From Aduncisulcus paluster (Eukaryota): 33,928 bases of DNA. Of this stretch, positions 11,228 through 33,928 are shown one piece after another (positions within the stretch are counted from its first letter, which is position 1; each line of letters begins with the position of its first letter). The DNA lies in assembly GCA_024181965.1 (NCBI GenBank), contig BQXS01012759.1, forward strand, positions 1 through 33,928, in the 5' to 3' direction. A program made the position numbers and the translations under genes. Under the pieces are notes generated by a model that searched no databases, was not told the DNA's origin, and saw only the letters and a list, made by a program, of their open reading frames with translations.

Positions 11228-11464
11228 GTTCAGACCCAATGAACAATAGATCAGATATTTCAATAAATCTTGCCTAGAATAGGTATTTTCCTATTTTACT
11301 TTGTCCTTTTAACTATTATTCTGTCTCAATCGAACAAATGATGGAAAGAAAAAAAAAAAACATGAAGAAAAGTTAACAAGTTTCTGCTTCAAAAAAATAT
11401 ATTCAAAAAACAAATATAAGATATGATTCTCAAAAAAAAATGACAATACATTGCACTTGAGGCT

Positions 11465-14233
11465 TTGATTTCAAAATGTCAATTTCAACAGACCTCTTTC
11501 TCCCTTGATGGTATGTATGACGGCATGTCAACCTCCGATACGTCATCAATAGTCTTTCCTTCTCCGATATATCAATTTGGAGAGGATATTATTGATGTTT
11601 CAACCTCTTCAAAATCCAAATCAACCATCACACCGCTTTCTCTTTTAAAGGATAATGATATGTGGTCAAATCAAATTTTACTTGCAGCAGAAAATGATTC
11701 TTTCGTTGAATATATTAACATTGATGTTGATACGTCCTTAGAGTATTTCCCATCAGCATCCAAGTCAAAAGACACATACTCAGTTTCTAGTGTGTGCGTT
11801 CTTGCTTCAATACATCTAAATAATTCTGACTTTTCTCCATATTATTCTGTAATATCTCGTTGTGAAGATCCAGATGATTTGTCAGACCTTAGTTCTTTCC
11901 CTTCTCTTCCCACCCATGATTGTGTTCTTACTTCAGAAGGCTATGGAAGTCAGACTGCTTCATTACGGTTATGGGGAATAGAGCCCGGTAAAAAGATTGT
12001 TTTTATGTGTCAGGCTTCATCTATTCCCTCAACTTCGAATGGGTATTTTAAAATTGATATCACTGCAAAATCTGGAATTTTAACATCATATTCTATTTTT
12101 GAAGCCGATCTTTTGTCATCTATGACCACTCTATCTTTATCAACTCTCTCATATAATATATTAAACATTCCTTCCGTATATTCGGCAGCTCTGAATTTTA
12201 TTTCGATTCAAACTCTCTCTGGGGATGATAGTATTCTAATTTCTGTGTTCGAATCGGATGAGACCATAATCTTACCCACTCTCCACTCTAGTGGGGTGGC
12301 TATTCTTCCGACTCTGCGCAATATATCTAGTTCAACTAATTTTAGCACATATTCCGAATCGTATAGTCCCACTACTTCGTATTATAATCAGTATGCAGCC
12401 CCCAATATATATATCCAAGACTTTGCCTCTCCTCTATTCCTTGATGATGTCATTGAAGAAATATCCACCGAAATCTATGGTACAAACACCAATTCTGGTA
12501 CATATCGCCTTAATATTTCAACTAATCCGACGTATCTACCTCCCTTATCGCCATCGAGCTCTATTTTAGTTCAATCTCTTTCTGGTTCTGCCCTTGATCT
12601 TGTTTTATCGTGGAATAATGGAGTTTCATCGTCGATAGGTGGACATGTAACCTCAAATATTGGTGGAAATGCGATATATTCTTACGATTCTTCGTTTCTT
12701 CCCGATTCCCCCATTATTGATATTTCTACTCTCCAATCCTATTCAACATGTCTCAAGTCCATTATTCCATCGTATTGCGAACAACTTGTGGATATAACTG
12801 ATGATATAAGTGATCCCAATTCCGATGCCTTCAAGTTGTATTCTCCTTCTCTTCATTTCATGACCTCCCTGCCTCCAACTTCCTCTTTCTCCTCTTCCAT
12901 AGGTGCTGTGCATTCGTTGTCCTTCACAACATCTCTCCTCCCACCATCTTCTCTCTTTTCCGGCACTCTATCCCCTTCCATCGGTCATCCTTCCTCACTC
13001 TTGTGGAACAAGGGCCAAGACAAGTTCAATATCGGTGCAGCCTCCCTATCTTATTCAGGAATAAGCAATAATCTCTATTTCTCCACAGTTCATTCCCATT
13101 CAATGACATACACATCCGGAATATCCTCAGCATATGGAAATGGGAGATTTGATGGATCCATCTCTCCGAGTATCTCGTATCCCATCATTCCTACATCTTT
13201 TGTTTCTCACTGCTCTGCATCTGATACCAGTAGATTGTCTGTGGCAAGATACACAGTTGATGGTATAAGTGATTATTCAAAAGAAATAGGTTTTCACGCA
13301 ACAGTACAATCTGCATTAGACAATGAAAACTCTATATCCATCGAAAATTATCAGACTCTCATAGGGAATGTCCAAGACGATCTCTCCGCTCTCTGGTTCG
13401 ATGGGATTAACCTTCATGAGGATGTCATTGGTGTATTTGGTGAAGGTAAACTACTCAACAACTGTGAATGCTCTTCTTCTTCAGGAGCTTATTCATGTTC
13501 TTGCTCTGCTCCTCCTGGATGGAGTGCTATTCCTATCCACGGAGGCTCCTCTTCTGTCGCCCTCTCCGTTAATGCGAAGGATGATTCCTCTGACTCAGAG
13601 TATAATGTTGATGATATGACTTATCTCGACCCTATATATTACATTGGATGCACATCAAGACAGGCAGATAGCGTTGGAATTAATCACAACATTGAATCTT
13701 TTGATTTCTCACAACTGAAGTCTTTCTCAGAATCTATTTCTGGGTACCCATCCTTCGATGCCCCTACTCCCATGATCATTGATTCCACCATGTCAGATAT
13801 CTCGGTGTCTTTGTCTCCCTCATGCTCATTCCTTAACTTTTATAACCCAGGTTCAAATTCTATTTCCTTCAGTGTTCTCGATTCACCTTGGAATTTCCCA
13901 TCAATTCTGCAAAGGGAAGTACAAACACATGTGATATGGCCCTGGTGGTTGGCTCTTGTGGTTTTGGTTGGTATTGTTCTGTTTGGCCTTCTGTGTGGAG
14001 TGTTCTGTGGATGCTGCATGTGCGCTTCTTCAAGAAGAGCCTGGAAACGCTTTAAGAAGACAAGGAAGGCCAAGAAGGAAGGCAAGGAACCTGAAGAGAA
14101 GGCACCCAACCCTTTTACAACAGAGCAGGCAAGATCACCATTGGGCTCACCTCTTGGAGCACCCACAATGATGCGCTCGAGTGTTATGTCATCGCCATAC
14201 AGAGAATCACCCTTTGAAACTTTCGATTATTGA
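11465..14233 (+). CDS. Ser-rich single-pass membrane protein (~900 aa) with Cys-rich juxtamembrane segment and short cytosolic tail; 5' end uncertain
   Basis: Long ORF. TM segment WPWWLALVVLVGIVLFGLLCGVFCGCCMC is followed by basic RRAWKRFKKTRKAKK. The track start is TTG and no signal peptide is visible. Confidence 0.85.
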   Translation: MISKCQFQQTSFSLDGMYDGMSTSDTSSIVFPSPIYQFGEDIIDVSTSSKSKSTITPLSLLKDNDMWSNQILLAAENDSFVEYINIDVDTSLEYFPSASKSKDTYSVSSVCVLASIHLNNSDFSPYYSVISRCEDPDDLSDLSSFPSLPTHDCVLTSEGYGSQTASLRLWGIEPGKKIVFMCQASSIPSTSNGYFKIDITAKSGILTSYSIFEADLLSSMTTLSLSTLSYNILNIPSVYSAALNFISIQTLSGDDSILISVFESDETIILPTLHSSGVAILPTLRNISSSTNFSTYSESYSPTTSYYNQYAAPNIYIQDFASPLFLDDVIEEISTEIYGTNTNSGTYRLNISTNPTYLPPLSPSSSILVQSLSGSALDLVLSWNNGVSSSIGGHVTSNIGGNAIYSYDSSFLPDSPIIDISTLQSYSTCLKSIIPSYCEQLVDITDDISDPNSDAFKLYSPSLHFMTSLPPTSSFSSSIGAVHSLSFTTSLLPPSSLFSGTLSPSIGHPSSLLWNKGQDKFNIGAASLSYSGISNNLYFSTVHSHSMTYTSGISSAYGNGRFDGSISPSISYPIIPTSFVSHCSASDTSRLSVARYTVDGISDYSKEIGFHATVQSALDNENSISIENYQTLIGNVQDDLSALWFDGINLHEDVIGVFGEGKLLNNCECSSSSGAYSCSCSAPPGWSAIPIHGGSSSVALSVNAKDDSSDSEYNVDDMTYLDPIYYIGCTSRQADSVGINHNIESFDFSQLKSFSESISGYPSFDAPTPMIIDSTMSDISVSLSPSCSFLNFYNPGSNSISFSVLDSPWNFPSILQREVQTHVIWPWWLALVVLVGIVLFGLLCGVFCGCCMCASSRRAWKRFKKTRKAKKEGKEPEEKAPNPFTTEQARSPLGSPLGAPTMMRSSVMSSPYRESPFETFDY

Positions 14234-14282: not shown

Positions 14283-14924
14283 CATTCTTGTTGAGTCTCT
14301 CACTTTTGTCTAATATTCGTACGAATATTCCAATCAATTTGATCCAGTACTAGAAATATTTTGATGATATATATTTGTTTTTTTACTATTATTATTATTA
14401 TTCATTATTTATTTGTTATTTATTCATATATATTTATCTAAATGCTTTCCATCCTTCCAAATCTTAGAGAAAAAGATAACCCCGTAAGGTGGAATATAGA
14501 TGTTTAATTAATGAAACAGGGACAAAATCCTCATTGAATCAATAATGCCATGTTATTCTAGAGTTGAAAAAGAGCTTTGTGGAGATTGACTCGCAATGAT
14601 TCTGTATCATACAATGATTGTCACTTTTTTAGAAAATTGCTCTTTCATACTTGGTTCCAGCTAAAAAATATGGGGAAGGAGTGATATTCTATTGTTTATT
14701 CCTGTGGTACATTCTTTATTTTTAAATAAATACCTTCTTTTTTTTTCAAATATCAATTTTTTCATAATTAGTTAATATCTGAAAATTCTGAACTCTATTG
14801 TTATTTTGAAACCATAATTAAGATTTAAAAATATTTTTTGACAAAGAATTACTCTGATTCAATCCACACAGTTTCCCATTCTGATGATTGCAGGCTTTTA
14901 AAGCCGCTTTTTTTTGTTCAAAAA

Positions 14925-16553
14925 ATGGGAAAACAGAAATCCAGTCACCCAAAACGTGCAGTACTAAGTGAACGGCCAAAAGATGATGGATTAACAGCTG
15001 AACAAAAGGCTATGGTGCGTGTAAGGAAGGATTTACCCTTACCCATCAAAAAGAAGCTTGGTATTGATGATTTTCCTGATTGTGATTCTGATATTTGTAA
15101 AATAGATGTGAAAACAATCCGTTCCCATTTTGAATATGAAGGTAGATTGTCTGATGAATTAATTCGGTTAATTCTTTCTGAAGCTCTTGCTAGTTTGCAA
15201 GCTCTTCCTAACATTGTAAAAATTACTTCTCCAATATGTGTTGTTGGAGATATTCATGGTCAATATTACGATTTATTGCATCTACTCGACATTGGAAAAT
15301 GGCCTGACCAAACAAATCCCAAAAGCACCAAATATTTATTTTTAGGAGATTATGTTGACCGAGGAACCTTTGGAGTCGAATGTTTTATCACCTTAGCCCT
15401 GTTATATTTGCAAAATCCAAAAAGTGTTACCCTGTTAAGGGGAAACCACGAAACCGCTCACATGACGCAACATTTTAACTTTTTTGCAGAAGTATGTTCC
15501 AAATATGATGAGTCAATCTATGATTTATTCTTGGAATGTTTCTATGCGCTGCCCTTGTGTGCATTAGTCGATGGAAAAATGTTGGGTGTTCACGGAGGAA
15601 TTTCCTCTCGGGTAAAGACTTTAGAAGACATAAATCGTATCCGTAGACATGAAGAATATAAGCCTAACACAATATTAAACGATTTATTGTGGTCGGATCC
15701 CCTCCCTAACTGGAAAAACAAAGCCATTACATTTATTCCAAATACACAGCGAGGAACTGGTGCCTTTTATGGTCAGGCAGGTGTGAAAGAATTCCTTACT
15801 CGTAATGGAGTGCTCTGTATCATCCGAGGACATGAAATGCAGGACACTGGGTATAAACTGTATCCTCCAATCGCTGATACTCCTTTCCCGCCCGTTATTA
15901 CTGTATTTAGTGCCCCAAACTATACCGATTCGTACAACAACACTGGTGCCTTCCTTGACATTGGACCTAAACACTTGAATGTAAAGACGTATCGTGGAGT
16001 GACGCATCCGTACGCTCTTCCTTCACATCAGAGTGTTTTTGATTGGTCTGTACCATTTGCAGCCCATTTCTTGTCCATCTTGATGGAGTCCATGTTCAAG
16101 AAGACCGAGGAGATGTTGTTAGATGATGCCAAGGATTGTTCTGAAGAGTCTGCAGTGGCCAAGAGAATGAGACGTGTGCGGATCGTTAGAAAGAAGATAG
16201 CAAGTGCCGCATTGATGAAATTCATGTTCAAAACACTCACAGAGGAATCAGAGGCTGTGGTCAAGATCAAGGGTTTCAACAAGGGTATCCTGCCGCGTGG
16301 TATCCTTCAAAAGGGACCAGAAGCCGTCGCCGCAGCAAATCGAGTCCTCATAGAGCTTCAAAAGAACGGAGATGCCGTCAATGAAATGAGTCCAATTGCT
16401 CTTGAGCGCATCATGCTCGAGGCGGCAGGTGTGGAGGGAGATACGGTTGCAGCCGACAAGAGATTGGTGGAAAGTTTGGATGCAAAAATGTCAACAGATG
16501 GAATTGCAAAGAAATTACGAATTCTATGGGGTCGAATGTACAAGAAATATTGA
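14925..16553 (+). CDS. CNA1: Calcineurin (PP2B) catalytic subunit A
   Basis: PPP motifs GDIHG, GDYVDRG, RGNHE. PP2B-type SAPNYTDSYNN, CnB-binding segment HPYALPSHQSVFDWSVPF, CaM-binding-like RIVRKKIASAALMKFMFKTLTEESE and autoinhibitory-like DAVNEMSP. First in-frame ATG is at 14925. Confidence 0.93.
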   Translation: MGKQKSSHPKRAVLSERPKDDGLTAEQKAMVRVRKDLPLPIKKKLGIDDFPDCDSDICKIDVKTIRSHFEYEGRLSDELIRLILSEALASLQALPNIVKITSPICVVGDIHGQYYDLLHLLDIGKWPDQTNPKSTKYLFLGDYVDRGTFGVECFITLALLYLQNPKSVTLLRGNHETAHMTQHFNFFAEVCSKYDESIYDLFLECFYALPLCALVDGKMLGVHGGISSRVKTLEDINRIRRHEEYKPNTILNDLLWSDPLPNWKNKAITFIPNTQRGTGAFYGQAGVKEFLTRNGVLCIIRGHEMQDTGYKLYPPIADTPFPPVITVFSAPNYTDSYNNTGAFLDIGPKHLNVKTYRGVTHPYALPSHQSVFDWSVPFAAHFLSILMESMFKKTEEMLLDDAKDCSEESAVAKRMRRVRIVRKKIASAALMKFMFKTLTEESEAVVKIKGFNKGILPRGILQKGPEAVAAANRVLIELQKNGDAVNEMSPIALERIMLEAAGVEGDTVAADKRLVESLDAKMSTDGIAKKLRILWGRMYKKY

Positions 16554-17332: not shown

Positions 17333-17584
17333 ATGAGAACTGGAGGATGCGTTGAACAACCTGAAGCCGAGTATGAACACTTCATGCCCCAAGTTAACTA
17401 CTGTGTCGACCTTGTTGAAGGTGCTACTCTTGTCAAGATCGTGCGTATTGAAACCCAAGTCGTTGCTGGAACTAAATTCAACATCGAACTTGAGATCAAA
17501 CTTCCCAGCGGTGAAACCACCACTAAAAAGTTTGTTGTCGTTCGTAATATCAAAGGTGAAATGTCTGGCAAACTCCTTGAGTAA
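17333..17584 (+). CDS. Cystatin (stefin-like intracellular cysteine protease inhibitor), 83 aa
   Basis: N-terminal GG, QVVAG (QxVxG) motif, no signal peptide. Codon usage resembles RPS14. ATG at 17333. Confidence 0.9.
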   Translation: MRTGGCVEQPEAEYEHFMPQVNYCVDLVEGATLVKIVRIETQVVAGTKFNIELEIKLPSGETTTKKFVVVRNIKGEMSGKLLE

Positions 17585-17880
17585 TAATGCTTCTTTATTG
17601 ATTTTTAAATGATCAATACTTTACATTGTTGATATTCAATAAATGTTTAACTATTATCTATTGTTTTTTTAGGATTCTAGGTGGCCTAGACTTGGCTAGT
17701 GTTCTAACAGAGCTAAATGAAATGAAAACATTGGTAAATATAATAAAAATTAAATAATATATCATATTCTCACGAAAAATGTCATCATAAGTCATTACAA
17801 AATAAAAAAAAATCCGGGTCTTCGATTTTCTCCTGATAATGGGTTCAAATTGATAAGTAATTCTATATTTTAACGAAATT

Positions 17881-20800
17881 ATGCCCAATATATTTAACTT
17901 TCTTCCAGTTTGCGCCTTTCCCCGGAAGATGTTGGATGCTTGTCAACACTCCCCCTTTAACTCTTCTATTGTTGCAAGTTCACTGACTATTCGACCATAT
18001 TATAATTTATTATTCATATCTTATATATATATTCTTATTGTGTTTTCAATTACCTTACATTTTCAGGAGGTAGACTTCCCTTCTCTTGAAACAAGCGGTT
18101 CCTTTAATACACAAAACATTAATTCAATCCCTTTTAATATTCAACAATTTGGAACGATGAATACATTGTCATTTTCTCTTCAGTCGAGTTATGTTACTCC
18201 TAATTATTTTTACAATCTCTATTACTCGAATCTCTTCGATATAAAGTCTTTTGAAGATAAATATTTCGATAAATCAATCAAAATATTTTCTCCAGATGGC
18301 TATATTTCGCATCCACTTTGTCTCCTGCTTGTTTTTATCCTCTTCACCATCGGTTTTCTCCACATATTTTGTTTTAAAGAACAATCTTACCACAAATTGT
18401 CATTCGCTTCCTTTTACTCATCGCCTAATAGTTTTTCTATTTTTTCCATCCTCATATTCATTTCCATATTCAGTATTTCCTTCCAGTCCGTCCTTGGCTA
18501 TGGTTTCTCTGAAGAATGTTCCATGTATCTCTCTGAGGACGATCACGTGGTCTGCAATGAGGTATATCCTGGTCGTTATGCAGCCGAGTGTGAGGATGGG
18601 TATTATTACAATGAGGCCACTTATTCTTGTGACATTGAAGATACGACATACCAATGTCCAACCATTAGTGATGAGTATCACATGTGCATCCTTGCTGATG
18701 GGGATTCATCCCTTTCCCTGGGCTGTCGATCTGCCTGGTATGGAGATGATTGTGACCAGTTGTATCAAGTGCATATTCCAGATCCATTGTTCAGGGGTAA
18801 AGTGTGTAACTATGCCGGATATGATACTACAGCTGATCCGCTATGTGACGTGTCTGAGTTTGACATGGCTGGAATAAGTGGGCAGTTTAATGTTGCGAAC
18901 AAGCATATATCATCTTTTGAAGGTGCACAATATTTTATCAATTTATCCTCTCTTGTTGCAAGAAACTCTGATATCACCTCAGCATCTGCATTTTCTCATC
19001 TTTATCAGATCACTCTATTGCATTTTGATGCATTAAATCCCGATTCATATGAATTGAATATTCATGATGTGGATACTCTCTTCACACTAAACAGGTTGGG
19101 TAACCTTCATTTGATGGGTAATGAGCGTGTCTATGATATTTCATTTACATTCAGAAACATTGGAATGAATTGGCTCGCCATTTCTAATAATGGAAATGTT
19201 CTAATTCCCCTCTGTCGATCCGAAACTGATGAAGACTACTGGAATTTCATCACAACTGTATTTCCAATTCATGAAACAAGTTTATCCTCGGCCGTTAAGT
19301 CATTCATTCCAAATAGTTGCCCTCTCAATTCTGAGACTGCAGATTATTTTTGTGATTCTGGTGCAAATTATAAATGCCCTTCGATTGTCCTGAACGAAGT
19401 GTACAACAGTGTCGACGGAGTGAACGAGAAACAATGTGCATTCATTGCCAAGGATTCCGATGGCAGGTGTTACACTGTCCATGATGATTCAGTTCGGCAA
19501 TACTTGGTTGCTAATTGCTTGGCTGGAGGTTCTGATGATCTTGAACCCAATGGAATCATCAGTGTTGCCACGATGCGAAGTGGTTTGACATGTCCTTCTT
19601 CCTCATTGTCCCTTCCAGCCATCGCTACAGCCATGTCCTTGAGTTCTGTGAATGATATCTCGACTCTTCAGGGTCTTGAGTATGGAACCTCCCTGACCTC
19701 CCTGACTCTCGATGGGTATGACTTGAGTGGNNNNNNNNNNNNNNNNNNNNTGCATTCATTGCCAAGGATTCCGATGGCAGGTGTTACACTGTCCATGATG
19801 ATTCAGTTCGGCAATACTTGGTTGCTAATTGCTTGGCTGGAGGTTCTGATGATCTTGAACCCAATGGAATCATCAGTGTTGCCACGATGCGAAGTGGTTT
19901 GACATGTCCTTCTTCCTCATTGTCCCTTCCAGCCATCGCTACAGCCATGTCCTTGAGTTCTGTGAATGATATCTCGACTCTTCAGGGTCTTGAGTATGGA
20001 ACCTCCCTGACCTCCCTGACTCTCGATGGGTATGACTTGAGTGGCGACATTAACTCCAATGCCGAGTATGATAGGTTGGTTGTCCAGATCTTGGCAAAGG
20101 CCGTGACATATGGAGTTATTAACTCTGGCCTTACTTCACTCTCAACCAATGGATGTGGACTGAGTGTTGTCAGTGATATCTTGGATCTCACTCCAATCGC
20201 TGATGGCGATGATCTGACACAACAATTTAAACTAACTCATCTTGACCTTTCCAACAATAATATCTCTGATGTCTCAGTTCTCATTACTTCTCCCATCTTT
20301 CCTGTAGATACATTGGCATCTCTTGATATCAGTGGAAATAGTATCTGTGATATTGATAATGTTGTTGTTGATCTTCTGACCAAATTTACAAGCCTAACAT
20401 TATCATCTTTGACATACTCTGACCAAACATGCCATTGTTCAGCTTCCGTATCGTCTTTGTCCCATCAGGTGTGTCGTGAAATATATCCTGATCGCTGGGC
20501 TGTTGAGTGCTGGAATGGGTACTATCTCGACAAATCGACTGGAGACTGTGTTGCTGCATGTGATAGTGGCTCTGAACTTGATACTGAAAGTGGAACTTGT
20601 GTATCTGTGAGTGCCTCTGTTGATGATGCCATTCGTGTCCAAGTCTGTGAAGGCCATTCCAATATGATGCCTGTTCTTGAGGAAGGAGCTTCATCCATCA
20701 CATGTGGATGTCGAGCTGCATGGTATGGAGATGATTGTGATCAATTGTATCAAGTGTATATTCCAGATGAAGTACTTAGAGATACTCTGTGTTCTTTAGC

Positions 20801-23800
20801 TGGGTATAACACCTCATCAGACCCATTGTGTGACATTTCTGAATATGAACTAGCTTTACTCGGAACAGCAAGTATGACAACATTTTATGTGCCTCTTTCG
20901 AGTCTTCAAGGTCTTCAATATTTGATAAATAGTTATTTCTTTCTCTTTTATTCTGCAAATCACTCATATTCTACAATTTGGCCCTTATCATTTTTGGGAC
21001 AATTGACATATTTGCACCTGTTTTCGATGCCTAATATCCCAATATCAGCTTCAATGCCTTATTTAACACCACTTCATCGTCTAAGATCAATTGCTATTCA
21101 GAATAATCCCTATATTTACGACATTTCCGTCTTCTATCGGAATATCAGAGTTTTTTCATTGGTTATTTCTGATTCGGTCAATTATTTTTATATTCCTCAA
21201 TGTCGATCTGAAACTGATGAGGAATATTGGGATTTTCTTGTTTCCGTTTTCCCAGCACATACATCAACAGATAAAAACACCAAATTTCTCCCGAACAGCT
21301 GTCCCCTTAACTCTGGTGGCAATTCCTGTACCTCGTCTGCATCATGTCCTTCCATTGTGCTGAACGAAGTGTACAACAGTGTTGCCGATGTTCCAGCCAA
21401 AGAATGTGCATTCATTGCCAAACCAAGTGGATCTGGTGATAACCTGACATGCTACACCGTTCATGATGATAATATTCGTCAATACCTTACAGAGCATTGT
21501 CTTTCTGAGACTGACTCTGAAACGAATGGTATCATCAGTGTTGCCACGATGCGTAGTAAGTTGACATGTTCTTCGTTGTCGCTCTCTGAAGTTGTTTCCA
21601 GTTCTTCCTCGTCCGTTTCTACTCTTGATGAGATCACGACTCTTCAGGGTCTTGAGTATGCCCAAGGTACAGATTCAAATGGCGAGTCCATTGGTTTGAC
21701 ATCTCTCAACATTGATGGGTATGACTTGAGTGGAAATATCAATGAGAATGCCGAGTATGATAAGTTAGTTGTTCAGATCTTGGCAAAGGCCGTGACCTAC
21801 GACTCCATCGATTCTGGTCTCACATCTCTCTCTGCGAGCGGGTGTGGATTGAGTGCTGTTAGTGATGTGCTTGATTTCACTCCAAGGGTCGCAAATGACA
21901 CTGCAACTCAATCATTTAAACTAACTTCACTTGACATTTCATACAACTCAATCTCTGATGTTTCTGCACTGATTACATCTCCAATATTCCCTCCTAATAA
22001 TTTAACCTATCTTAATATCAGTGGTAACATTATTTGTGATATTGATAATGTTGCAGTAACACTGCAAGCGTATTTTACAAATTCCGTGATTATCATTTCT
22101 TCAGACCAGTCAACATGTCCGTGTTCGGGTTCAGTTTTATTTCATTCCCACAAAACGTGTCGACAACGCTCTGATGGCGAGTATCAAGTTGAGTGTTGGC
22201 ATGGCTATTACTTGGATAAGAATACAAACACTTGTGTAAAATCATGTCCGAGTGGGTATTCACTTGATCTACCGAATGGTGGTGAATGTGTCTCCGATTC
22301 TGGAGTAACTGAAGATAATTCTGTTCATTGTCAAGTATGTGAAAGGAAAGATAACGATTCTTTGATTTCAATTTACAATAACGATAGTTCGTCTGTCTTG
22401 TGTGGTTTTCCATGTGAATCTGGATGGTATGGAGATGATTGCTCAAGTGAATGCCCAATCAGTGGAGGTGTTGTATGCTCTGGCAATGGAACCTGTAATA
22501 CAATTGATCATGTGTGTGAATGCGATAAATGGCATGATGGATCTGTCTGTTCCAATATGATTTCAATATTCTCCCCTGAATGTGATCGTGCATTCACTTT
22601 CCAAGATCATTTGGAGTGCAATGAGGTATATCCTGGTCGTTATGCAGCCGAGTGTGAAGATGGATATTATTATGATGAAGCTGATTATTCATGTATCCAA
22701 GAAAATAGCTCATCTCAATGTCCAACTAGCATCGATGAGTATCACATGTGTGTTTTCGCGGATGGAGATTCAGCCCCCTCCCTTGGATGTCGGTCAGCTT
22801 GGCATGGGAATGCCTGCGACGAATTATATAATGTGCATATTCCAGACAAGGCGTTTAGAGAAGAAATATGTACAGCTGCCGAATATGCCGATTCGGATTG
22901 TGATGTCACTGAGTTTGAGATGGCTGGAATAAGTGGGCAATTTTACATCCATGATTCGCATATTTCAACAATTCAAGGTGCTCAAAATTTGATAAATGTT
23001 TATTATTTCCACGCAGATAATACTGATATTACAAGTGGAACTCCATTATCAACCCTTGGACAGTCCTCTTGTTTATTTGTTCAAAAGAAATCTGATTCGT
23101 ATGCTTCAAATTTGTTTGATTTGTCATTTTTAATTGGGATTCATCGGTTTGTTTCCGGGATTATGACCGGAAATGATCGAATGTTTGATATTTCGATTCT
23201 ATATCGAAATGCTTCCTTATGGTATGTTGATATTGCAAATCACGATTATCCAATAGCTAGAATTCCACTTTGCCATTTAGAAAGTGATTCTGATTATTGG
23301 TCTTTCATTATTTCAGTATTTCCTGCACATTGTCAAACTGAAAATTATATGAATTATTATTATCTCCCCAATAACTGTCCACTTAACTCTGATCCTGGAA
23401 ACACTCCTTACAACTGTGATTCCTCACTCTATCCTACAAAATGCCCTTCGATTGTCCTGAACGAAGTGTACAACAGTGTCGACGGAGTGAACGAGAAACA
23501 ATGTGCATTCATTGCCAAGGATTCCGATGGCAGGTGTTACACTGTCCATGATGATTCAGTTCGGCAATACTTGGTTGCTAATTGCTTGGCTGGAGGTTCT
23601 GATGATCTTGAACCCAATGGAATCATCAGTGTTGCCACGATGCGAAGTGGTTTGACATGTCCTTCTTCCTCATTGTCCCTTCCAGCCATCGCTACAGCCA
23701 TGTCCTTGAGTTCTGTGAATGATATCTCGACTCTTCAGGGTCTTGAGTATGGAACCTCCCTGACCTCCCTGACTCTCGATGGGTATGACTTGAGTGGCGA

Positions 23801-26800
23801 TATTAACTCCAATGCCGAATNNNNNNNNNNNNNNNNNNNNAATGGAATCATCAGTGTTGCCACGATGCGAAGTGGTTTGACATGTCCTTCTTCCTCATTG
23901 TCCCTTCCAGCCATCGCTACAGCCATGTCCTTGAGTTCTGTGAATGATATCTCGACTCTTCAGGGTCTTGAGTATGGAACCTCCCTGACCTCCCTGACTC
24001 TCGATGGGTATGACTTGAGTGGCGATATTAACTCCAATGCCGAATATGATAGGTTGGTTGTCCAAATCTTGGCAAAGGCCGTGACATTTTCAAATGGTTC
24101 CGGATCTGTAAATTCTGGTCTCGAATCCTTGTTTGCGAGTGGTTGTGGACTGAATGAGGTTAGTGATGTTCTTGACTTGACTCCAATTGCCAATGGAGAT
24201 GAAGGCACAAAGGAATTTAAACTAACTTTTCTTGACCTTTCCAACAATAATATTTCCGATGTCTCAGTTCTCATTACTTCATCTATCTTCCCTTCAGATA
24301 CCCTTACTTTGCTTGATATTAGTGATAACTCGATCTGTGATATTGAAGGAATGTTAAGTGCATTATATACTCATTTTTCATCAACTTCTATCCAAATAAT
24401 TTATTCTAACCAAACTTGCAAATGCTCAGCGCCCGTGTCTTCTTCGTTGCATCAGGTGTGCCGTGAAGTTTATCCAGATCGATGGGATGTTGAGTGCTGG
24501 AATGGATACTATCTTGATGAAGCCAGTGGTGAATGTGTTGCTGTATGTGATAGTGGGTATGTGTTTGATAAGATTGGTGAAACGTGTGAGACTACTACTT
24601 CCCCAGTTGATGATGCCGTTAGAGTCCAAGTATGTGAAGGTCATTCTACAATGAAGCCTGTTTTGAAAATTGATGAGTCATCTATCACATGTGGCTGTCG
24701 ATCTGAATGGTTTGATACTGATTGTGATAAAATGTATCAAGTATATATTCCAGATAGGTTATTCCGAAAGAAGGTTTGTGAATATGCCGGATATGATATT
24801 AATTCTGATCCTTATTGTGATGTTTCAGAGTTTGAGATGGCGGAAATAACAGGAACATTTTATGCAAACGAAAACCATATTTCGACATTCGAAGGTGCTC
24901 AGAATCTCATCAATATATATTACTTCCACGCTGGAAATACTGATATTTTATCAGCCACCCCATTTTCTAGTCTCCCACAATTATTTTGGTTAGATCTCAC
25001 CCAGTGGAGTGATGATTATGCTATTAATATTCTTGATGCCAATTCCTTATATTCTCTTCACCGATTATCTATTTTTGCTATATTTGGGAATGAATCCATC
25101 TATGATTTATCGGTTTTCTTCAAAAATCTAGGGATGACATTATTTTCTCTTGCCAATGAGAATTATGACGATGCAATAATTCCTCTTTGTCGATCTGAAA
25201 CCGATGTGGAATATCAATCATTTATCACATCTGTATTTCCAATTCATACAGATGTTTTAACAACCGTTTCTCTGCCGAACAGCTGTCCCCTTAACTCTGG
25301 TGGCAATTCCTGTACCTCGTCTGCATCATGTCCTTCCATTGTGCTGAACGAAGTGTACAACAGTGTTGCTGATACTCCAGTTAAAGAATGTGCTTTCATT
25401 GCAAAGACGAGTGGCTCTGTTGATGATGGTGATCTCACATGTTATACCATTCATGATGATAATATTCGTGCTTATTTGTCTGATCCCGCCAATGGATGTC
25501 TGATTAGCTCTGATATTGAATCCAATGGGATGATTAGTGTTGCCACATTGAGGAGTTCTCTGTCATGTCCTTCTTCCTCTTTGTCTCTCTCATCCATTGT
25601 AACAGATATGGGCATATCATCTGTGAATTCCATTACGACTCTGCAAGGTCTTGAGTATGCCACTTCACTGACATCTCTCAACATTGATGGGTATGACTTG
25701 AGTGGAGATATCAATGAGAATGCCGAGTATGATAAGTTAGTTGTTCAGATCTTGGCAAAGGCCGTGACCTACGACTCCATCGATTCTGGTCTCACATCTC
25801 TCTCTGCGAGCGGGTGTGGATTGTATGCTGTCAGTGATGTGCTTGATTTGACACCAATTGCCTTTGGTGATGAAGCTACAAAAGGCTTTAAGCTGACCTC
25901 TCTAGATCTTTCCAACAACAATATCTCCGATGTTTCTGTTCTAATCACTTCGTCAATATTCCCTTCTGATAGCTTAACCTTCCTTGATATTAGTGGTAAC
26001 TCAATCTGTGATATTGAAAACGTTGTGTCAACGTTTCAATCGTATTTTACAAATTCTAGTCTTGTAATAGTGTCTGAGGATCAATCTGCATGCCCTTGTT
26101 CTGAAGGATTTGATGTATCATTTTCTGCTCATAAGACTTGTAAGCACCGCTCTGATGAATCCAACCAAGTTGAGTGTTGGCATGGGTATTACTTGGATAA
26201 GAATACAAACACTTGTGTAAAATCATGTCCTAGTGGATATTCGCTGAATGAGACTGATACTACTGGTGAGACATGTATTGAAGATCTTGGTAGTACTGTT
26301 GACAATACCATTCGTTGTCAAGTATGTGAGAGGAAAGATATCTTTGTTCCAATTCTTGATCTCAACACATCAGATATTTCATGTGGGTGTTCATTTGGCT
26401 TCCATGGAGATTCCTGTGAATATGTTGACATTCCCGATTCCAACCTTCGAAGTGCTGTGTGTCTGGCTGTTGTTAATCCAAGTGCTCACGATTCCTCCTG
26501 TGATGATCTGACTCTTTCAGACATGGCAACCGTGACCTCTATTAGTGCTTCCATTGTGGACTCCTTTGAAGGTCTTCAATCTGCTGTGAACCTCACATCT
26601 TTGTCTATCTCTGGCACTTCGTCTAGTTCTGTGTCCATTGGGAATACTGATCTTTCCTTCCTTCCTTTGTCTCTCGTTGAATTGTCTCTTGAGGCTGTCT
26701 ATCTTGATGCTGATAGTGACTTCTCAAATTTTGAAGACCTTACAACACTTTCTTTGAATAACAATCCGACCTATGAGATCACCGAGTCTGGTCTTTTCCC

Positions 26801-29800
26801 TTCAACAACTCTCACTTCTTTCAGTGCCAACAACACTTCAATCTCTCTGTTGTTCCATCTTGTTGCTAGCATGCCCAATCTGACTGAACTATCTCTGAAC
26901 AACAATAATATCTCTGATCCTTCCCCATTGTATGCTTTATCTAATAATTCCTGGAGCAGTCTTGACTTGTCCAATAACTACATCTGTGGTGATGAATTTT
27001 CAACTCAATCTTTCCTTGCAACAAAGTTTTCTACAACAGTGAATGTTGCTGATCAAGTATGTGAATGTTCTGACTCGAATTCTCTTCCAAGTATAATTGA
27101 TAATCTTGTGTGCAGTGAGACTAAACCTGGTTCTGACCACTGGTATGTTGTGTGTGCCAGCAATTCGTATTTCTCGTACACATCTGCTGAGGACTTTACA
27201 TGTACTTCTCCATCCAACCAAGATGGTACATATGGATGTCCTGGAGGATGTGAGTATGGACACGAGTGTAGATTTGCAGAAGGTTCCGACTCAGTTTCTT
27301 GTCATCCTGTAATTGTTGATGAAAATCTGCATACTTGTGTTGCCAAGATGTTCAGGATAGATTCTTTTGAAGATTATACCCACAAGACAATTGGGAATGA
27401 TTTTAGCGTGGCTTCATTAAAAGCACTTGTATCTCAATTTTCAAGTACTACTGGTGTGGCTGATCCTGTTCTCTCTTGTCCTTATGAAATTATCACTATT
27501 TATGGTATTGAACATCTTGCATACGTTTCGTGGATCGATCTATCTTATGCAGAAATCACTGATACAATGGATTTATCTCCATTGACAACATTAACCAATC
27601 TTCAATATTTCTCTTTGACAGGAAATGAAGAATTGAATATCTTACCTGATTTGACTAATCTTGAGATGCTTCAAAAGCTACGTATTGATTCAACATCTAT
27701 TTCCCTTCCATCTGACAGTTTCCTCCTCCCTAGTTCAGTAGAATATCTTAATCTTCTCGATTCTCTTGTGGATCAAGCTGGATTCGAGAAAAATGTTGGT
27801 TATGGACATTTACCTTTGCTTGATTCATTATATTTTGGTGGAACTACTTCGATATCTTCGATCTCTTGTCTCACATCTGGACAAAAAGAGCACATTTCCA
27901 AGCTTAATATACAGAAATATCCCATTTATGATTCTATGAATGATGATATCGCTGAAATGAAGAATTTAAACACATTGTATCTCCAATATGTTGCTTTAGA
28001 AACCATTCCAGACCTCTCCAACAGTGCAGCCACCCTTGTTGAAGTCAGTATCGATCACAATCCAAATCTCACTTCCCTTTTCCCTCTTTCTGAGGCTGGT
28101 CTCGACTCTCTTGAGATTTTGTTAGTTTCAAACTGCAATATCTCTGACTTGTCACCTCTATATAATTTATCCAACCTTTGGGCATTAGATGCATCGTACA
28201 ACAAGATTTGTGTAGGGAGTGAAACTCAATCTTCGATAGATGAAAAGTTCTGTGGGGATTCATTAGATATTAACATAGAGTTTGCATCGCAGACATGTGA
28301 TTCATCCTGCTCTTTGATTGAATACACTTCCTCTTCGACTCCAATATCCGATAACAAGATCTGCAGTGAGACTAAGCCTGGTTCTAGCTCCTGGCATATT
28401 GTATGTGCCAGTGATTCATACACATCATACACAGACGCAGAGACATTTAGCTGTATCCAACCTACATCGGCTTCTAAGAATTGTTCTGGTGGGTGTTCCT
28501 ATGGATATGAATGTAGATATGTTGGAATGGATGAAGACAACGGATTGGAGGGAGAATGTCAACCCGTGATTGTTGATGATGTTTTGCATGCCTGTGTTGC
28601 CGCTATGTTCACCGATTCTGTTCATCGTACAGATGATTCCCTTCCTCTCTTCAGTGTTGCTTCATTGAAAACTCTTGTTGGTGATTATAGCAGTGAAACA
28701 GATACATATTCATATGAACTGTCCTGTACTTCACCTATAGCCGTATTATCTGGAATTGAGCATCTTGTGAACGTGTTAAAAATATCAATTATTAATGCTT
28801 CCCTTCCTGATTCATCTTTGTCTCCAATTTCAACTCTAACGAAATTGGAGTATTTAAATTTGTCAAACAATTCATCGTTGACTTATCTCCCTGATTTTTC
28901 AGATCTTAACCTCAAAAGCCTTGATATTATCAATTCAAACATTATTCTATCAGAAACAACCGAAGCGTCGTCGTTGCTTCCTTCCACTCTAAGATATTTG
29001 GCCATGTATAATACTCCTACAACTCAAGCTGGTTTTAACATTCACGTTTGTGCAAATAATCTTCCAGAATTGAAATATCTCACTTTCGGTAACTACGATT
29101 ACATATCTTCAATTTCTTCAGTTTCATCTGATCTGACAACCCTTGGGATTGGTAACACAACCTCTATTCAAGATCTTCAAGAGAAACTAAACTCAATGGA
29201 ACAATTACAGAAGGTTTATTTTAGAAATATTGATTTAGAAACAATTCCTGATTTTTCAGCTTCAAAAGAGAGCTTAGTTTCACTGACACTCTCATATAAT
29301 TCGAGAATTTCATCTGTCTATCCATTGTTTGAACAAGGATTATCAAATCTAGAGAGTTTTGATTGTTCCCACTGCTCTATTTCAGATCTATCTCCATTGT
29401 ATCCTTTCTCAAAGCTTATGACCATCTCAGTTATTGATAACCGTATCTGTATGGGATCGGAGACCACTGATGTTCTTGCTCAGAAATTCTATAATTATGG
29501 AGAGACTGAATTCTCTCTTGCTTTAGGCGATGACCTTTCAGAAGACCAGACATGCGAAGAGAGTTGTTCCTCTGTTGCCAATCCAATCACCAACAATATC
29601 GTTTGTAGTGAGACTAAACCTGGTTCTGGCATTTGGTTTACCGTTTGTGCCAGTGATTCATACACGTCATACACGTCTGCTGAGGACTTTACTTGTATCT
29701 CCCCTGCTAATGGGGATGGTACTTTTGGATGTACTGGAGGTTGTGAGTATGGGCAAGAGTGTAGATATGATTCAACTTCAAATTCAACATCGTGTCAGCA

Positions 29801-32800
29801 AGTGATAGTTGATGATATACTGCACAATGTTATCTATAGTCTGTTTGGAGGATCCGACTTACATTGTGATACAACAGATCAAACATTCGGTGTTGCTTCT
29901 TTGAAGACTCTCATATCTGTAGAAGATGAAGATGGAAATGTCAGCCCAGAAATTTATTGTAATCTTGGAGATTTAGTGAGTAATTTTTCTGGTATTGAAC
30001 ATGTTGGATTCATTACAAAAATGCAATTTTATCATCTTGATATCTCTGAAACGAAAGATCTTGAACCCCTATCAACACTCTCTAATCTCAATTATCTCTT
30101 TCTGACTGACAACACTCTTGCTGATTCGGTGGACCCGTTTGATTTGCCTGATTTCACAGGTCTTTCTTCCCTTGAAACATTATTTCTCCGAGATATGCCC
30201 TTAACTCTTCCTTCAGATCGGTATGTTCTTCCTTCTACAATTAAAGAATTGAGAATAGTTTGTACTCCTACCGTTCAAGCTGGTTTTGATAAGAATGTTG
30301 GTTACGATTACTTGTCATCTCTTGAATATTTACAATTAGGAGGTGAGAATAATTTGATTACTTCCATTGAATCGTTGTCAAAGGACCAATTGTCAACAAT
30401 TACCGGCTTCCAGTTCGCCGATTATCCCATTTATGATGGATTTAATACTGTAATTTCCGAAATGACAAATTTGGAGTCGTTGTATTTGCGCAATTGTAAT
30501 TTGCAAAATATTCCAGATCTTTCAAAAAGTTCTGCTACTTTGACTGATCTTAACCTCAACTTAAATCATGATATTACTTCTCTTGTTCCATTGTCAACGA
30601 TAGGATTATTTTCTTTGAGTAACATTAGCTTAAGAAGCTGTTCCATTTCTGATCTTTCTCCATTGTATGATTTCCCCAATCCCATTAATATAACATCAAT
30701 TAAAAACAACAAAATATGTATTGGAACAAATTCAACCTCAGATTTAATTGCCAAATTCACACAATCTTCTGTGAGTATTGTATTGGAATCACAGACCTGT
30801 GAATGTTCCTCTGATAGCACTGCAATTGGATACACCGATACCCCGATCACTGACAATATCGTGTGTAGTGAGACTGTACCTGGATCTGGTTCATGGCATT
30901 ATGTGTGTTCCAGCCATAGTATTGCATCATACACATCTGTGAATACCTTCGAGTGTCTAGCTCCACTCAACACAGATGGTGAAACGTATGGATGTTCTGG
31001 AGGTTGTGAGTATGGATATGAATGTAGATATGATGATGAATTAACTCAATCCACCTCTTCATGCTATCCTGTGATTGTTGACGATAACCTAAGACAAACC
31101 ATTATTGACACATTCTTTGATGATTGTTCTCACTATGTTTGCGACGCTGAGGATTCTCTTTTGAGTGTGGCATCTCTTCGAAATATTCCTATTTTTCCTC
31201 CCGCTTTGGAAGGTACTTTTATTCTTTCTTTATCTGGATTGGAACACATTCTTAACCTCCGATCCCTTCAACTTTCACCGGGAGAAGTTTCTTCATTTGC
31301 GCCTTTGTTTAATCTTACAAATCTCCAGGAGCTCTCATTATTATCCGCAACGACTCTATCTGATATATCTTTCATTTGCAATTTCCCCAATCTTGAACTC
31401 CTAAGTGTTGCTGATTCAACAAATGTTAGTGCACTTCCAACGTGTTCTGGGTCAAATGATATATATTCTACATTATATTCCATAGATATCTCAAAAACAT
31501 CAATAATAGACCTCTCCCCTCTTATCCAAAATGGGGATAATAATGTTCTAGAGATATTGTATACTGGGGAGCAATATCAAACAATAACCAATGAAGATAC
31601 TGGAGATACTTCGGTTGAATATTTGGATATCTCTTCCTTCCAAAATTTACCTTCTCTTCGAACTGTTGAACTTGACAATTCAAATATGTCCGAATTAGAC
31701 TTTCAATATTTGTTAGATTTTAATTTCCCTGAATCCATTGATCTTTCTGGAAATTATTTGACTGATGTATCTCCTATATTTCACTACAATCAAACACTTA
31801 CCTCTTTTTCTTTTGATTCGAATGATCTTTGTATTTCATCACAACTTCAAAACTATGTTTTTGAATCATTTTTCCCATTTGCAGACTCCATGACGTATGG
31901 AGACAGTGAATATAGTGAAACAACTGCAAGGTGTTGTGCTTGTGACGATTCTGCGGATTTCTTTATGAATTCAAAATGCGTCAAGGCATGGACATGGACT
32001 GAGCTCGATGATGACGGTTCTATCATAGAATATGAGCATTGGCAAACAGGATGTGTATTTTACAGTTATCTGGACAGCGATGGATCATGCGTATCTTTCC
32101 TCGATTCATCTTCACGAGTCCCACCCGAGAATGTGCCCCCCTGTGTTCTTGAGTCAATACTTGACTCACATGTACAATGTTCAAATCAGGAAGGAACTTT
32201 AACTTCTTGTATCGATGGTTGGTATGGTGAGGATTGTGATCAAGAATGTCCATTGGTCGATTCACAACAATGTGGAGGCTCTGAGTTTGGAACATGCGAA
32301 CTTGCTCTTCATCAATGTATTTGTAATGAAGGATACTTCGGTGATGCATGCGAATACCTTGATTCTGATCTATCTGAATATATCTGTCATGATATTTCGA
32401 ACTCAACAAACAATGTTTCTCTTATTGAAGGTTCTACTGTTATCTGTATTGATGATTCTCTCCTTCTTCTTGATGACATGCAGAATATAGTTTCCCTTGA
32501 TTTGTCTCATTCAAATATCTCCTCCCTTCGTGATCTTCATCGAGCAACAAATCTTGTTGAATTAAACATTCACGGAATGTCTTTTGAGGAAAATGATGAA
32601 AATTCCATTTCATTACTTGAACTCTCTGAGATCCATTCGTTAGTTTCCCTCGATATTGGCTCTACAAATATTGATGTAACATCTGCACTCTCCAATATTC
32701 CATCATCTATTCTATCATTGCACTTGGATTCACTTGATATCGATCCTGATACAGATTTTTCCTCCTTCTCACAGTTGATGACTCTTTCATTGCGATATAA

Positions 32801-33928
32801 TTCAAGATTTTATCTTAGTTCCCCTTCGATGCTCCCTTCCAAAATATCATATCTTGATCTTTCTGGATGTGTTATGTTCGGTGAATATTTAGATGCAATT
32901 TCATCTTTAAGCAATCTTTCTACTCTATTTCTCTCTGATATGAAGCTTGATAACTCCTCAACATTTTCTCTTGCAAAAATATCATCCATTAATTATTTAG
33001 ATCTATCAAATAATGAAATTTCTGACATTTCTTTGTTATTTCAATTACCCGATTTGTTTGAATTAGATATATTGAATAATAAGCTTTGCAATGTGACAAA
33101 TGATACTCTTGTTTCATTTTTCTCACAATCCGATATTTTTATTGATGTTGGGAATGATTCAGGTGATTCTTTCAATCAAGATGAGGAATATTGTCTCCAG
33201 TGTGGAGGTGAATCTGAATCAATTGTTGATCTTTCTTCTTATATCGTTTGTAAAGAGATATGGGCCGATACGTATTCCCTGGATTGTGCCCTTTTCAGTT
33301 ACAAAGATAGTTCAAGTGAATCTGATCTGAATTGTATTGGTTTAGAAGTTGGAACATCTTATTCATGCATTGATGGCATTGAAACAAACTTAAATATGCA
33401 ATGTTTTCGTGAAAATAATATTAACGATATAATTACCGCATGTGTTGAAGGGTGGTATGGCGATGAGTGTCTTGATGAATGTCCACTCCAAGGCACTGAG
33501 GAATGTGGAGGCTCTGGGTATGGAACATGTGACAGTTCAACACATACTTGTGATTGCTCTGTCTCTGGTTTCCATGGTGATTCGTGTCAATATGTCACAT
33601 TCGCTGATTCCCACATTCTCTCTACTCTATGTTCACTTGTTGATGGTCATGACTCCACATGTGACGATCTGACTGATGGTGATCTGACAGAGAGTGATCT
33701 TGCAGGGATTACATTGCCTGATGATGAATGTCTTGATCTGTCCAGTCTTGATATCACTGACTTATCTGGACTTGAATATCTCACGAACATCGCATGCATC
33801 GATCTGAGTGGAAACACTTCCTTGAGTAATATCTCTGTTCTTGACTCCTTGAGTGAGTTTAACCATCTGACTGCTCTGAACATCTCCAATACAGCCGTGG
33901 ATGACTTGACCCAGATCTCATCTTTGTC
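17881..33928 (+). CDS. Giant modular Cys-rich LRR + EGF-like surface protein, 3' partial, at least ~5,170 aa after removing gap overlaps
   Basis: The 17881 ORF reaches the first gap and resumes at 19752 in another frame because of the overlap. That frame was in register at every segment I translated (20820, 22413, 23451, 23841, 24780, 27111, 30864, 33891), and the track lists no terminated ORF in it. Motifs include IPDxxFR/LR caps, LDLSNNNISDVSVL-type LRRs, NxIC C-caps and CxxGWYGxDC EGF-like modules. Confidence 0.9.
19437..20044. other. Scaffold gap (N 19731-19750) with overlap duplication, 19437-19730 = 19751-20044; causes an apparent frameshift
   Basis: An identical 294-bp sequence lies on both sides of the gap. 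Confidence 0.88.
23616..24045. other. Scaffold gap (N 23821-23840) with overlap duplication, 23616-23820 = 23841-24045
   Basis: An identical 205-bp sequence lies on both sides of the gap. Confidence 0.88.
27100..31960 (+). repeat. Four diverged ~1.25-kb coding units (Cys-rich CSETxPGS..W..VC / GGCxYGxECR module plus LRR domain)
   Basis: CSET at 27111, 28362, 29604 and 30864 (spacings 1251, 1242, 1260 nt). Each is followed by VIVD, (F/L)xVASL and GIEH/GLEH motifs and LRRs. Confidence 0.85.

Follow-up and report, generated by a model that had tools for sequence, protein, structure and literature searches.

A giant Aduncisulcus paluster gene with alternating variable and conserved leucine-rich repeat domains, probably one of a germline-encoded receptor repertoire

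The window analyzed here, the whole 33,928-nt stretch of Aduncisulcus paluster contig BQXS01012759.1 (GenBank assembly GCA_024181965.1; GC content 0.38), carries on its plus strand a giant open reading frame (ORF) in which four tandem units, placed by a four-unit alignment, start at 18553, 20472, 22617 and 24459. Each unit runs in the same order, from a cysteine (Cys) module through a variable leucine-rich repeat (LRR) block that extends from IPD to IPLCRSE (LRR-V) and a Cys linker with CPSIVLNEVYNSV to a conserved domain of regular LRRs (LRR-C); units 1 and 3 have a type-a Cys module, units 2 and 4 one of type b. The four-unit region probably codes for the N-terminal third of a type I surface protein whose single giant gene lacks introns, as part of an explanation in which a family of germline-encoded receptors varies on one face of LRR-V.

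Four 20-N gaps, missed by an earlier model-made reading of this DNA (the original prediction), lie in the window at 1137-1156, 10832-10851, 19731-19750 and 23821-23840. Self-comparison of the window shows each of them bordered by a tandem copy of its own flank: at the first, 917-1136 recurs at 1157-1376 (220 nt, 100% identity), at the second, 10540-10831 recurs at 10852-11144 (293 nt, 99.7%), and the two within the gene are listed below. When gap and second copy are deleted, two long plus-strand frames fuse into one of 5,177 codons with no stop, from 17857 to 33926; as the frame is continuous in this form, the gaps are overlapping contig ends left unmerged and have no biological meaning. Celera-type scaffolders place a minimum of 20 N at gaps of negative size. 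The species draft genome was assembled with MaSuRCA from 150-bp paired reads with ~500-bp inserts and remains heavily broken up (N50 4.6 kb; PMC9933649). The same artefact is found at the two window gaps outside the gene, so it is general in this assembly, and any gene model drawn across such a gap will contain a spurious duplication or a broken frame. The public gene model at the locus (P0003, 1,791 aa) is truncated and carries a duplication artefact: it spans only part of an ORF of at least 5,000 codons and includes stretches that match the duplicated gap flanks, its last residues matching 19752-20066 and 23841-24044. It splices a 77-residue exon at 17333-17563 to 18475, and this first exon may be part of a small gene of its own. 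The features of the four-unit region and its continuation are as follows, with the LRR blocks bounded by hidden Markov model (HMM) envelopes.

18157 to 33926, plus strand: giant ORF, its 3' end open at the contig end, continuous only after removal of both artefacts
18439 to 18495, plus strand: signal-peptide-like hydrophobic segment ending in FQSVL, a motif that precedes the ectodomain in many paralogues
18553 to 18768, plus strand: unit 1 Cys module, type a, CNEVYPGRYAAEC...GCRSAWYGDDCD
18769 to 19248, plus strand: unit 1 LRR-V, with a cap, about five repeats and the IPLCRSE cap (HMM envelope)
19372 to 19730, plus strand: left part of a 362-nt tract identical to 23439-23800, covering the linker (CPSIVLNEVYNSV) and the start of LRR-C
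19471 to 20396, plus strand: unit 1 LRR-C (HMM envelope), broken by an artefact
19731 to 20044: assembly artefact, the 20-N gap plus 19751-20044, an exact copy of 19437-19730 (294 nt, 100%)
20472 to 20753, plus strand: unit 2 Cys module, type b, CREIYPDRWAVECWNGYY..., with high summed k-mer depth
20754 to 21236, plus strand: unit 2 LRR-V (HMM envelope; AlphaFold2 model)
21291 to 21385, plus strand: exact 95-nt linker tract in common with 25275-25369, away from any gap
21453 to 22085, plus strand: unit 2 LRR-C (HMM envelope)
21697 to 21851, plus strand: 155-nt LRR-C tract in common with 25669-25823, with one mismatch
22101 to 22616, plus strand: Cys module of type c and EGF-like module, weak cEGF/DUF4215 matches
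22617 to 22832, plus strand: unit 3 Cys module, type a (unit alignment)
22833 to 23306, plus strand: unit 3 LRR-V (HMM envelope)
23439 to 23800, plus strand: unit 3 copy of the 362-nt tract, identical to unit 1
23538 to 24389, plus strand: unit 3 LRR-C (HMM envelope), broken by an artefact
23821 to 24045: assembly artefact, the 20-N gap plus 23841-24045, an exact copy of 23616-23820 (205 nt, 100%)
24459 to 24740, plus strand: unit 4 Cys module, type b (unit alignment)
24741 to 25223, plus strand: unit 4 LRR-V (HMM envelope)
25443 to 26060, plus strand: unit 4 LRR-C (HMM envelope)
26088 to 33926, plus strand: further Cys/EGF and regular LRR modules downstream of unit 4

The ORF start is placed tentatively, at the first ATG that lies in frame upstream of the hydrophobic segments. 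Two such segments lie at the N-terminus (18316-18495), the second being the one that ends in FQSVL, and two hydrophobic segments 24-41 residues apart likewise precede the ectodomain in the paralogues P0109, P0114, P0059 and P0056, so that the N-terminus may comprise more than a plain signal peptide. Downstream of unit 4, four further tandem units of ~1,250 nt each open with a CSETKPGS Cys module (27111, 28362, 29604 and 30864) and continue with regular LRRs, and EGF-like GWYG(D/E)xC modules follow at 32208 and 33441. The Cys modules gave only weak, below-cutoff matches to cEGF and DUF4215 in Pfam.

A search with unit 2 against 1.84 billion representative proteins returned 83 proteins at E<=1e-3, and 58 of these reach E<=1e-30. 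All nine named top matches are from A. paluster and the tenth is the window's own gene model, so that all named close relatives agree with a unicellular eukaryote as host, as had been supposed from the DNA; in a second search, 47 of 47 matches were A. paluster proteins, mostly partial and from contigs of 1-4 kb. Ten of the weakest matches comprise six A. paluster proteins, one from a nematode, one from an uncultured bacterium and two from metagenomes. The nematode, bacterial and metagenome proteins were rejected as family members, being weak, mostly short LRR matches that lack the unit architecture. The family is apparently large and restricted to this species. It is undescribed in the literature that we covered, supplementary tables excluded, on LRR receptor kinases in Metamonada, Hexamita inflata and Aduncisulcus, and the genome announcement (PMC9933649) does not mention it. 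In the accessible part of PMC11437800, 'Aduncisulcus' and 'leucine-rich' appear in different contexts; its Table S2, with LRR counts per species, may bear on the matter.

The paralogues also give the likely membrane topology. In P0042, P0043 and P0110, LRR-C and a type-b Cys module are followed by a membrane helix and a Pkinase domain (E 3e-14 to 1.3e-16), and P0067 bears the kinase HRD motif as well. Ten other members have a C-terminal helix and no kinase motif; one of the ten, P0068, is complete at 4,577 residues and ends in a helix and a tail of ~190 residues that contains neither a Pfam domain nor a kinase. Because its members end either in helix and kinase or in helix and short tail, the family appears to consist of type I surface receptors, only some of which have a kinase, and the three paralogues that reach a membrane helix and protein kinase make the receptor role first proposed for this DNA plausible.

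LRR-V is predicted to fold as an internalin-type cap and LRR. Over 42 aligned copies its columns alternate between low-entropy L/I/V/F or N and high-entropy x positions through four repeats of an LxxLxLxxN-type motif. An AlphaFold2 model of unit 2 (543 residues, built from 23 aligned sequences) reached a predicted local distance difference test score (pLDDT) of 81.9 and a predicted template modeling score (pTM) of 0.78, and places LRR-V strands at LRR spacing at residues 135-137, 156-160, 180-184, 206-209 and 229-232. These five strands fall on the variable motifs that had been pointed out earlier, and together with the four HMM envelopes they bear out the reality of the four proposed LRR blocks. 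By VIA-align, model residues 90-243 superimpose on residues 39-177 of InlB (9qr4_A) with Z 10.8 and a root-mean-square deviation (rmsd) of 2.2 over 136 residues at 21% identity, while residues 328-543 match the NLRP1 LRR with Z 10.6; domain ranges from VIA-align were used because Foldseek TM-scores for the whole model, which holds several domains, are low (0.16-0.25). The whole ORF matches Pfam LRR_4 (139.7 bits), LRR_8 and related models through regions other than LRR-V. For LRR_5, the BspA type, the whole ORF had no match at E<=0.01 and unit 2 none at E<=10, and the VSP model had none in Pfam scans of the ORF and of unit 2.

Family-wide, LRR-V is the least conserved of the modules, with a mean pairwise identity of 0.32 over 42 near-full copies, compared with 0.51 for LRR-C (43 copies), 0.44 for the Cys module (61 copies) and 0.48 for the linker (35 copies). 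The caps, the Cys residues and the core are conserved across LRR-V copies, and the variation lies mainly at the x positions, 16 columns picked by motif from four LxxLxLx strands. Among the four copies in the window identity is 0.11 at the 16 beta-strand x positions, 0.32 in the core and 0.47 elsewhere, so that the x positions do differ most, as originally claimed. Over the 42 family copies mean entropy is 3.31 bits at the x positions and 2.17 bits at the 130 other columns (Mann-Whitney p=7e-7), whereas the corresponding positions of LRR-C have 1.71 bits against 1.59 elsewhere (p=0.36). Variation is thus concentrated on the x positions rather than spread evenly over the LRR, and the arrangement of variable and constant LRR domains is genuine and family-wide. 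The composition of the two domains differs as well. Phe, Trp, Tyr and His together make up 16-19% of LRR-V and 5-7% of LRR-C, which agrees with the aromatic and His richness reported earlier; x positions of LRR-C are 75% Ser, Thr or Asp, and those of LRR-V are 18% Ser and 15% Tyr, every other residue staying at or below 7%, with Lys and Ile outside the twelve commonest. The LRR blocks as first delimited are more A+T-rich than the ORF, again as claimed (GC 0.32-0.35 vs 0.39).

A close clade of four paralogues (P0096, P0006, P0017 and P0091), whose LRR-V blocks are 74-84% identical, shows where changes have fallen. Within it, x positions are identical in 35 of 96 comparisons (36%), compared with 152 of 211 (72%) at 36 equally unconstrained columns, chosen by an entropy computed without the clade; 13 of 16 x columns are variable against 17 of 36 other high-entropy columns (Fisher p=0.033), and core positions are 10/12 to 12/12 identical. 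What these proteins show is faster change at the predicted concave face. Changed residues are interleaved one by one with core residues that are identical, a pattern that excludes exchange as the source of the changes and points to point substitution.

High variability could also arise if LRR-V were a decaying or structural spacer whose x positions are unconstrained and drift neutrally under AT bias, in which case there would be no repertoire. LRR-V is the most A+T-rich module (GC 0.34-0.37), TAY and TTY codons are themselves A+T-rich, Pfam does not see the domain, and the nonsynonymous-to-synonymous difference ratio (pN/pS) is below 1 everywhere, 0.83 at x codons. We nevertheless regard such drift as unlikely, since x positions have changed at roughly double the frequency of equally unconstrained columns (0.36 vs 0.72 identity), the caps, Cys residues and core are kept, the frame stays open over the 5,177 codons and LRR-V is modeled confidently as an LRR fold. 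The composition tells against it too, with x positions rich in Tyr (15%) and Ser (18%) and with Lys and Ile, which the same bias would favor, outside the twelve commonest residues. AT drift alone does not account for Tyr at these positions, because it would equally favor Lys, Ile and Asn, none of which is enriched.

The DNA next to LRR-V behaves in the opposite way. After gap collapse, 19372..19730|20045..20047 is identical to 23439-23800 over an exact run of 362 nt; 21291-21385 equals 25275-25369 over 95 nt; and 21697-21851 matches 25669-25823 with one mismatch, in exact runs of 38 and 116 nt. When the columns of each pair were shuffled 2,000 times, no exact run exceeded 42 nt. Third codon positions are 100% identical in the tract windows, while the flanks are 50-80% identical. 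The coordinates proposed earlier for these tracts proved exact (100%, a 95-nt exact run, and 155 nt with one mismatch). The gaps at 19731-19750 and 23821-23840 fall within the first of the near-invariant blocks described earlier, with the 362-nt tract abutting them, and the 95-nt and 155-nt tracts sit in uninterrupted sequence. The exact runs of 362, 116 and 95 nt take in synonymous sites, the longest of them adjoining assembly gaps, and we infer gene conversion as their cause.

Near-identical blocks of this kind might instead be products of the assembly, through collapsed repeats or gap filling from the other copy, with true copies that differ there. In favor of this, the 362-nt tract touches both gaps in the gene, all four gaps of the window have duplicated flanks, and the draft, for which 150-bp paired reads were used, has an N50 of 4.6 kb (PMC9933649). 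We placed on 18400-26600 independent contigs from two public runs, X1 (presumed RNA) and X2 (presumed DNA). The long X2 contigs, at 18778-19401, 20018-20440, 20742-21320, 21846-22157, 22220-22610, 22633-23468, 23996-25304 and 25794-26200, have an even depth of ~1,250-1,340, and because those over LRR-V share this uniform depth every LRR-V block is single-copy. They end (19401, 23468, 21320 and 25304) or begin (25794) exactly 30 nt inside the exact tracts, as expected of a 31-mer graph in which two distinct flanks enter a true repeat. Between the long contigs lie shattered ones whose depths add up to 10-140 times the single-copy level (177,916 at 25524-25797, for instance), a sum that does not measure copy number; the reads show framework k-mers to be common to many sequences. 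Two distinct single-copy left flanks and two right flanks merge at the tract borders, with contig starts at 20018, 23996 and 25794; the 95-nt and 155-nt tracts are free of gaps; and an assembly break is itself what is expected at an exact repeat longer than the reads. Blocks made by the assembler are hence very unlikely. We take the identical tracts to be genuine repeats, the 362-nt one being the cause of the assembly break: the 20-N gaps with duplicated flanks at units 1 and 3 arise because this exact repeat outlasts the reads. The LRR receptor family probably adds to the fragmentation of the draft assembly.

Some further observations were made on the read contigs. X2 cover is low at 19496-20043, from which we conclude nothing. 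X1 carries the same unique pieces at a depth of 12-40 and is not used as evidence. The unique contig that follows the 116-nt tract begins at 21822 in X1 and at 21846 in X2; X2 may hold extra paralogues, absent from X1, that share up to 24 more bases, and the difference would suit X1 being RNA with some members expressed, of which it is not evidence.

The modules of a unit do not all have the same history. In the window the Cys modules pair unit 1 with 3 (0.75 identity) and unit 2 with 4 (0.65 vs 0.43), and the LRR-V of unit 4 is nearer to units 1 and 3 (0.49 and 0.48) than to unit 2 (0.38). The paralogues P0017 and P0091 have the same cap, with LRR-V and linker each 0.81 identical and Cys modules only 0.46; the module is of type a right after the signal sequence in P0017 and of type b after an LRR-C in P0091, so that one LRR-V lineage occurs behind two Cys-module types. 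Over 29 units, LRR-V identity correlates moderately with that of LRR-C (Spearman 0.55) and not with that of the Cys module (0.11), and the nearest neighbor is concordant in 5 of 29 units, a suggestive but noisy comparison of distant representatives made without trees or support values. Module exchange and gene conversion at the frameworks are the best account of these patterns, on an evolutionary time scale only. The proposal that the frameworks act as recombination anchors is upheld to the extent that the exact tracts and the mosaic pair P0017/P0091 speak for it over evolutionary time, and is weakened by the entanglement of the largest block with the gaps.

A dedicated diversity generator would go further, with framework anchors serving frequent mitotic or somatic exchange of LRR-V, as in var or variant surface glycoprotein (VSG) genes or, at the extreme, the lamprey variable lymphocyte receptors (VLRs). 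High-copy, near-identical DNA does lie on both sides of LRR-V, and neighboring modules are discordant, as the Cys-module correlation, the nearest neighbors and P0017/P0091 illustrate. X2 contigs joining different units (18783-25680; for example 21598 to 25619 and 20750 to 23844) occur near single-copy depth; their sides are only 20-30 nt, other mosaic paralogues are their likely source, and they were not counted as recombinants. The gene is, by contrast, a complete germline ORF through its four units once the artefacts are removed, not an incomplete gene with donor cassettes, and changes that fall residue by residue beside an identical core are impossible by cassette exchange. The contigs of X1 and X2, which cover the tracts partially and drop rare variants, list no variant letters in LRR-V blocks or tracts. 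Nothing seen suggests a programmed or somatic process, and we consider one quite improbable; on this point the original prediction of a diversifying mechanism found no sign in its favor, the x-position changes fitting point substitution rather than cassette swapping.

The explanation that we consider probable is a germline receptor repertoire with a diversified concave face, homogenized frameworks and modules exchanged by recombination. LRR-V would form the ligand-binding face that sets specificity, LRR-C and the Cys modules would provide a constant scaffold or a co-receptor interface, and a cytoplasmic kinase or a short tail would relay the signal in members of the family. Diversity would be encoded in the germline, arising by duplication followed by accelerated point substitution at the x positions, with diversifying selection probably behind their speed; occasional exchange of whole modules would add to it, and gene conversion would hold framework DNA near-identical between units and between paralogues.

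Several observations weigh against such a repertoire. The pairs P0026-P0108 and P0015-P0107 retain their x positions (14/16 and 13/16 identical), and the fast change at x positions comes from one clade of four related, non-independent copies, at columns chosen by motif. Paralogue comparisons rest on proteins, and tests on DNA cover the four window units only. In these, LRR-V synonymous sites are saturated, with proportions of synonymous differences (pS) of 0.64-0.79; the Jukes-Cantor synonymous rate (dS) is uncomputable for four of six LRR-V pairs, and the nonsynonymous-to-synonymous rate ratio (dN/dS) is at most 0.35 where it can be computed. Because of this saturation a dN/dS above 1 cannot be shown: when the comparison that had been proposed for x codons was run, pN/pS came to 0.83 there, 0.58 at core codons and 0.50 elsewhere, and positive selection at the x positions is not demonstrated. 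None of the four LRR-V blocks reaches a Pfam LRR cutoff, the highest-scoring match, to LRR_8, having E=0.059 and 13.6 bits where 27 are required. The C-terminus of the window gene, with any helix or kinase, lies beyond the contig end at 33926; which flanks belong together on the two sides of the 362-nt tract was decided by the scaffolder; and the summed contig depths do not count copies.

A bolder version of the repertoire would have dozens to perhaps more than 100 germline LRR 'paratopes' in a free-living, bacterivorous metamonad, with Tyr/Ser-rich concave faces borne by receptor kinases and receptor-like proteins, positively selected at the x positions, reshuffled between near-identical frameworks by gene conversion and recognizing prey, symbionts or viruses. 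We put this forward tentatively, as a possibility that is more doubtful than not. If true, it would be a protist recognition system convergent with the plant repertoires of receptor-like kinases (RLKs), receptor-like proteins (RLPs) and nucleotide-binding LRR receptors (NLRs), and in protein design with lamprey VLRs.

Elsewhere in the window, a 535-residue ORF on the opposite strand (7964-9571, minus) encodes a full protein kinase domain (Pkinase, E=1.3e-62), and the ORF at 14829-16553 (plus) encodes a calcineurin-like metallophosphoesterase (E=1.1e-32). Two long plus-strand ORFs, at 2153-6073 and 11444-14233 (1,306 and 929 residues), have no Pfam match.

Innate recognition rests, in plants as in animals, on large, fast-evolving families of LRR receptors. 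With the family described here, a free-living relative of Giardia within Metamonada would possess a repertoire of similar kind. The family's design is unusual in that each unit couples a hypervariable LRR domain with a constant one and giant proteins carry such pairs one after another. It would offer a tractable case for how a phagotrophic protist tells bacteria apart, and for the division of work between gene conversion and selection in a repeat family; its interest comes mainly from the organism and from the paired variable/constant design.

The nearest parallels in layout are the plant LRR-RLKs and RLPs and the LRR transmembrane kinases of oomycetes, which, like the present family, are type I proteins in which one membrane helix joins an LRR ectodomain to a kinase or to a short tail, and form large lineage-specific families. 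In plant resistance proteins, variation is concentrated at solvent-exposed xxLxLxx positions. The A. paluster repeats are internalin-like, of ~22-29 residues, in contrast to the 24-residue plant type; here a variable LRR domain and a conserved one are interspersed with Cys/EGF modules, and a single protein exceeding 4,900 residues can hold as many as four such sets; and the host is a free-living metamonad. LRR-type transmembrane kinases are described in oomycetes and sporadically in other eukaryotes, in a source (PMC10463195) whose main text has 'Metamonad', 'Trichomonas' and 'Giardia' 0 times each. The transmembrane kinases (TMKs) of Entamoeba histolytica (PATMK/TMK96) are likened to the family by architecture and not by sequence, as a large type I receptor kinase family with Cys-rich ectodomains in an anaerobic phagotroph, one member of which, according to the available part of PMC2211552, acts in phagocytosis; their ectodomains consist of CXXC repeats and, unlike those of A. 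paluster, have no LRRs.

In fold, the predicted LRR-V matches the cap and LRR of Listeria InlA and InlB (Z 10.2-11.8, rmsd 2.2-3.5, 136-168 residues). Internalins bind their ligand on the concave face. Identity is only 18-21%, and the likeness is one of fold class rather than of family; here the host is eukaryotic and LRR-V is embedded in Cys/EGF modules, and no Ig-like inter-repeat domain or bacterial anchor was seen, neither having been the object of an aimed search. Lamprey VLRs share with LRR-V small LRR modules whose hypervariable concave residues lie between invariant caps, and VLR-derived repebodies are among its structural matches (7yco_B, Z 10.8; 4j4l_B, Z 10.4). VLRs are assembled somatically, by insertion of donor cassettes into an incomplete germline gene. 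The A. paluster gene, in contrast, is complete in the germline, and no somatic variation was seen in contigs, from which rare variants are dropped.

Among protists, the LRR expansions of Tetrahymena are likewise lineage-specific and tandem, in a free-living bacterivore, and ectopic recombination has been proposed as their driver; as far as the accessible part of that study goes, those genes consist of 90-bp exons with phase 2 introns, whereas the A. paluster gene is intronless and modular, with paired LRR-V and LRR-C and Cys/EGF modules (PMC6564038). Within the same supergroup, the BspA-like LRR proteins and Cys-rich membrane proteins of metamonads are expanded surface families too, and for A. 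paluster transcriptome data the accessible text of PMC11437800 gives 0 variant-specific surface proteins (VSPs) and 18 Cys-rich membrane proteins. The window gene differs from both BspA-like proteins and VSPs, in that it has no LRR_5 or VSP Pfam match and its LRRs match LRR_4 and LRR_8.

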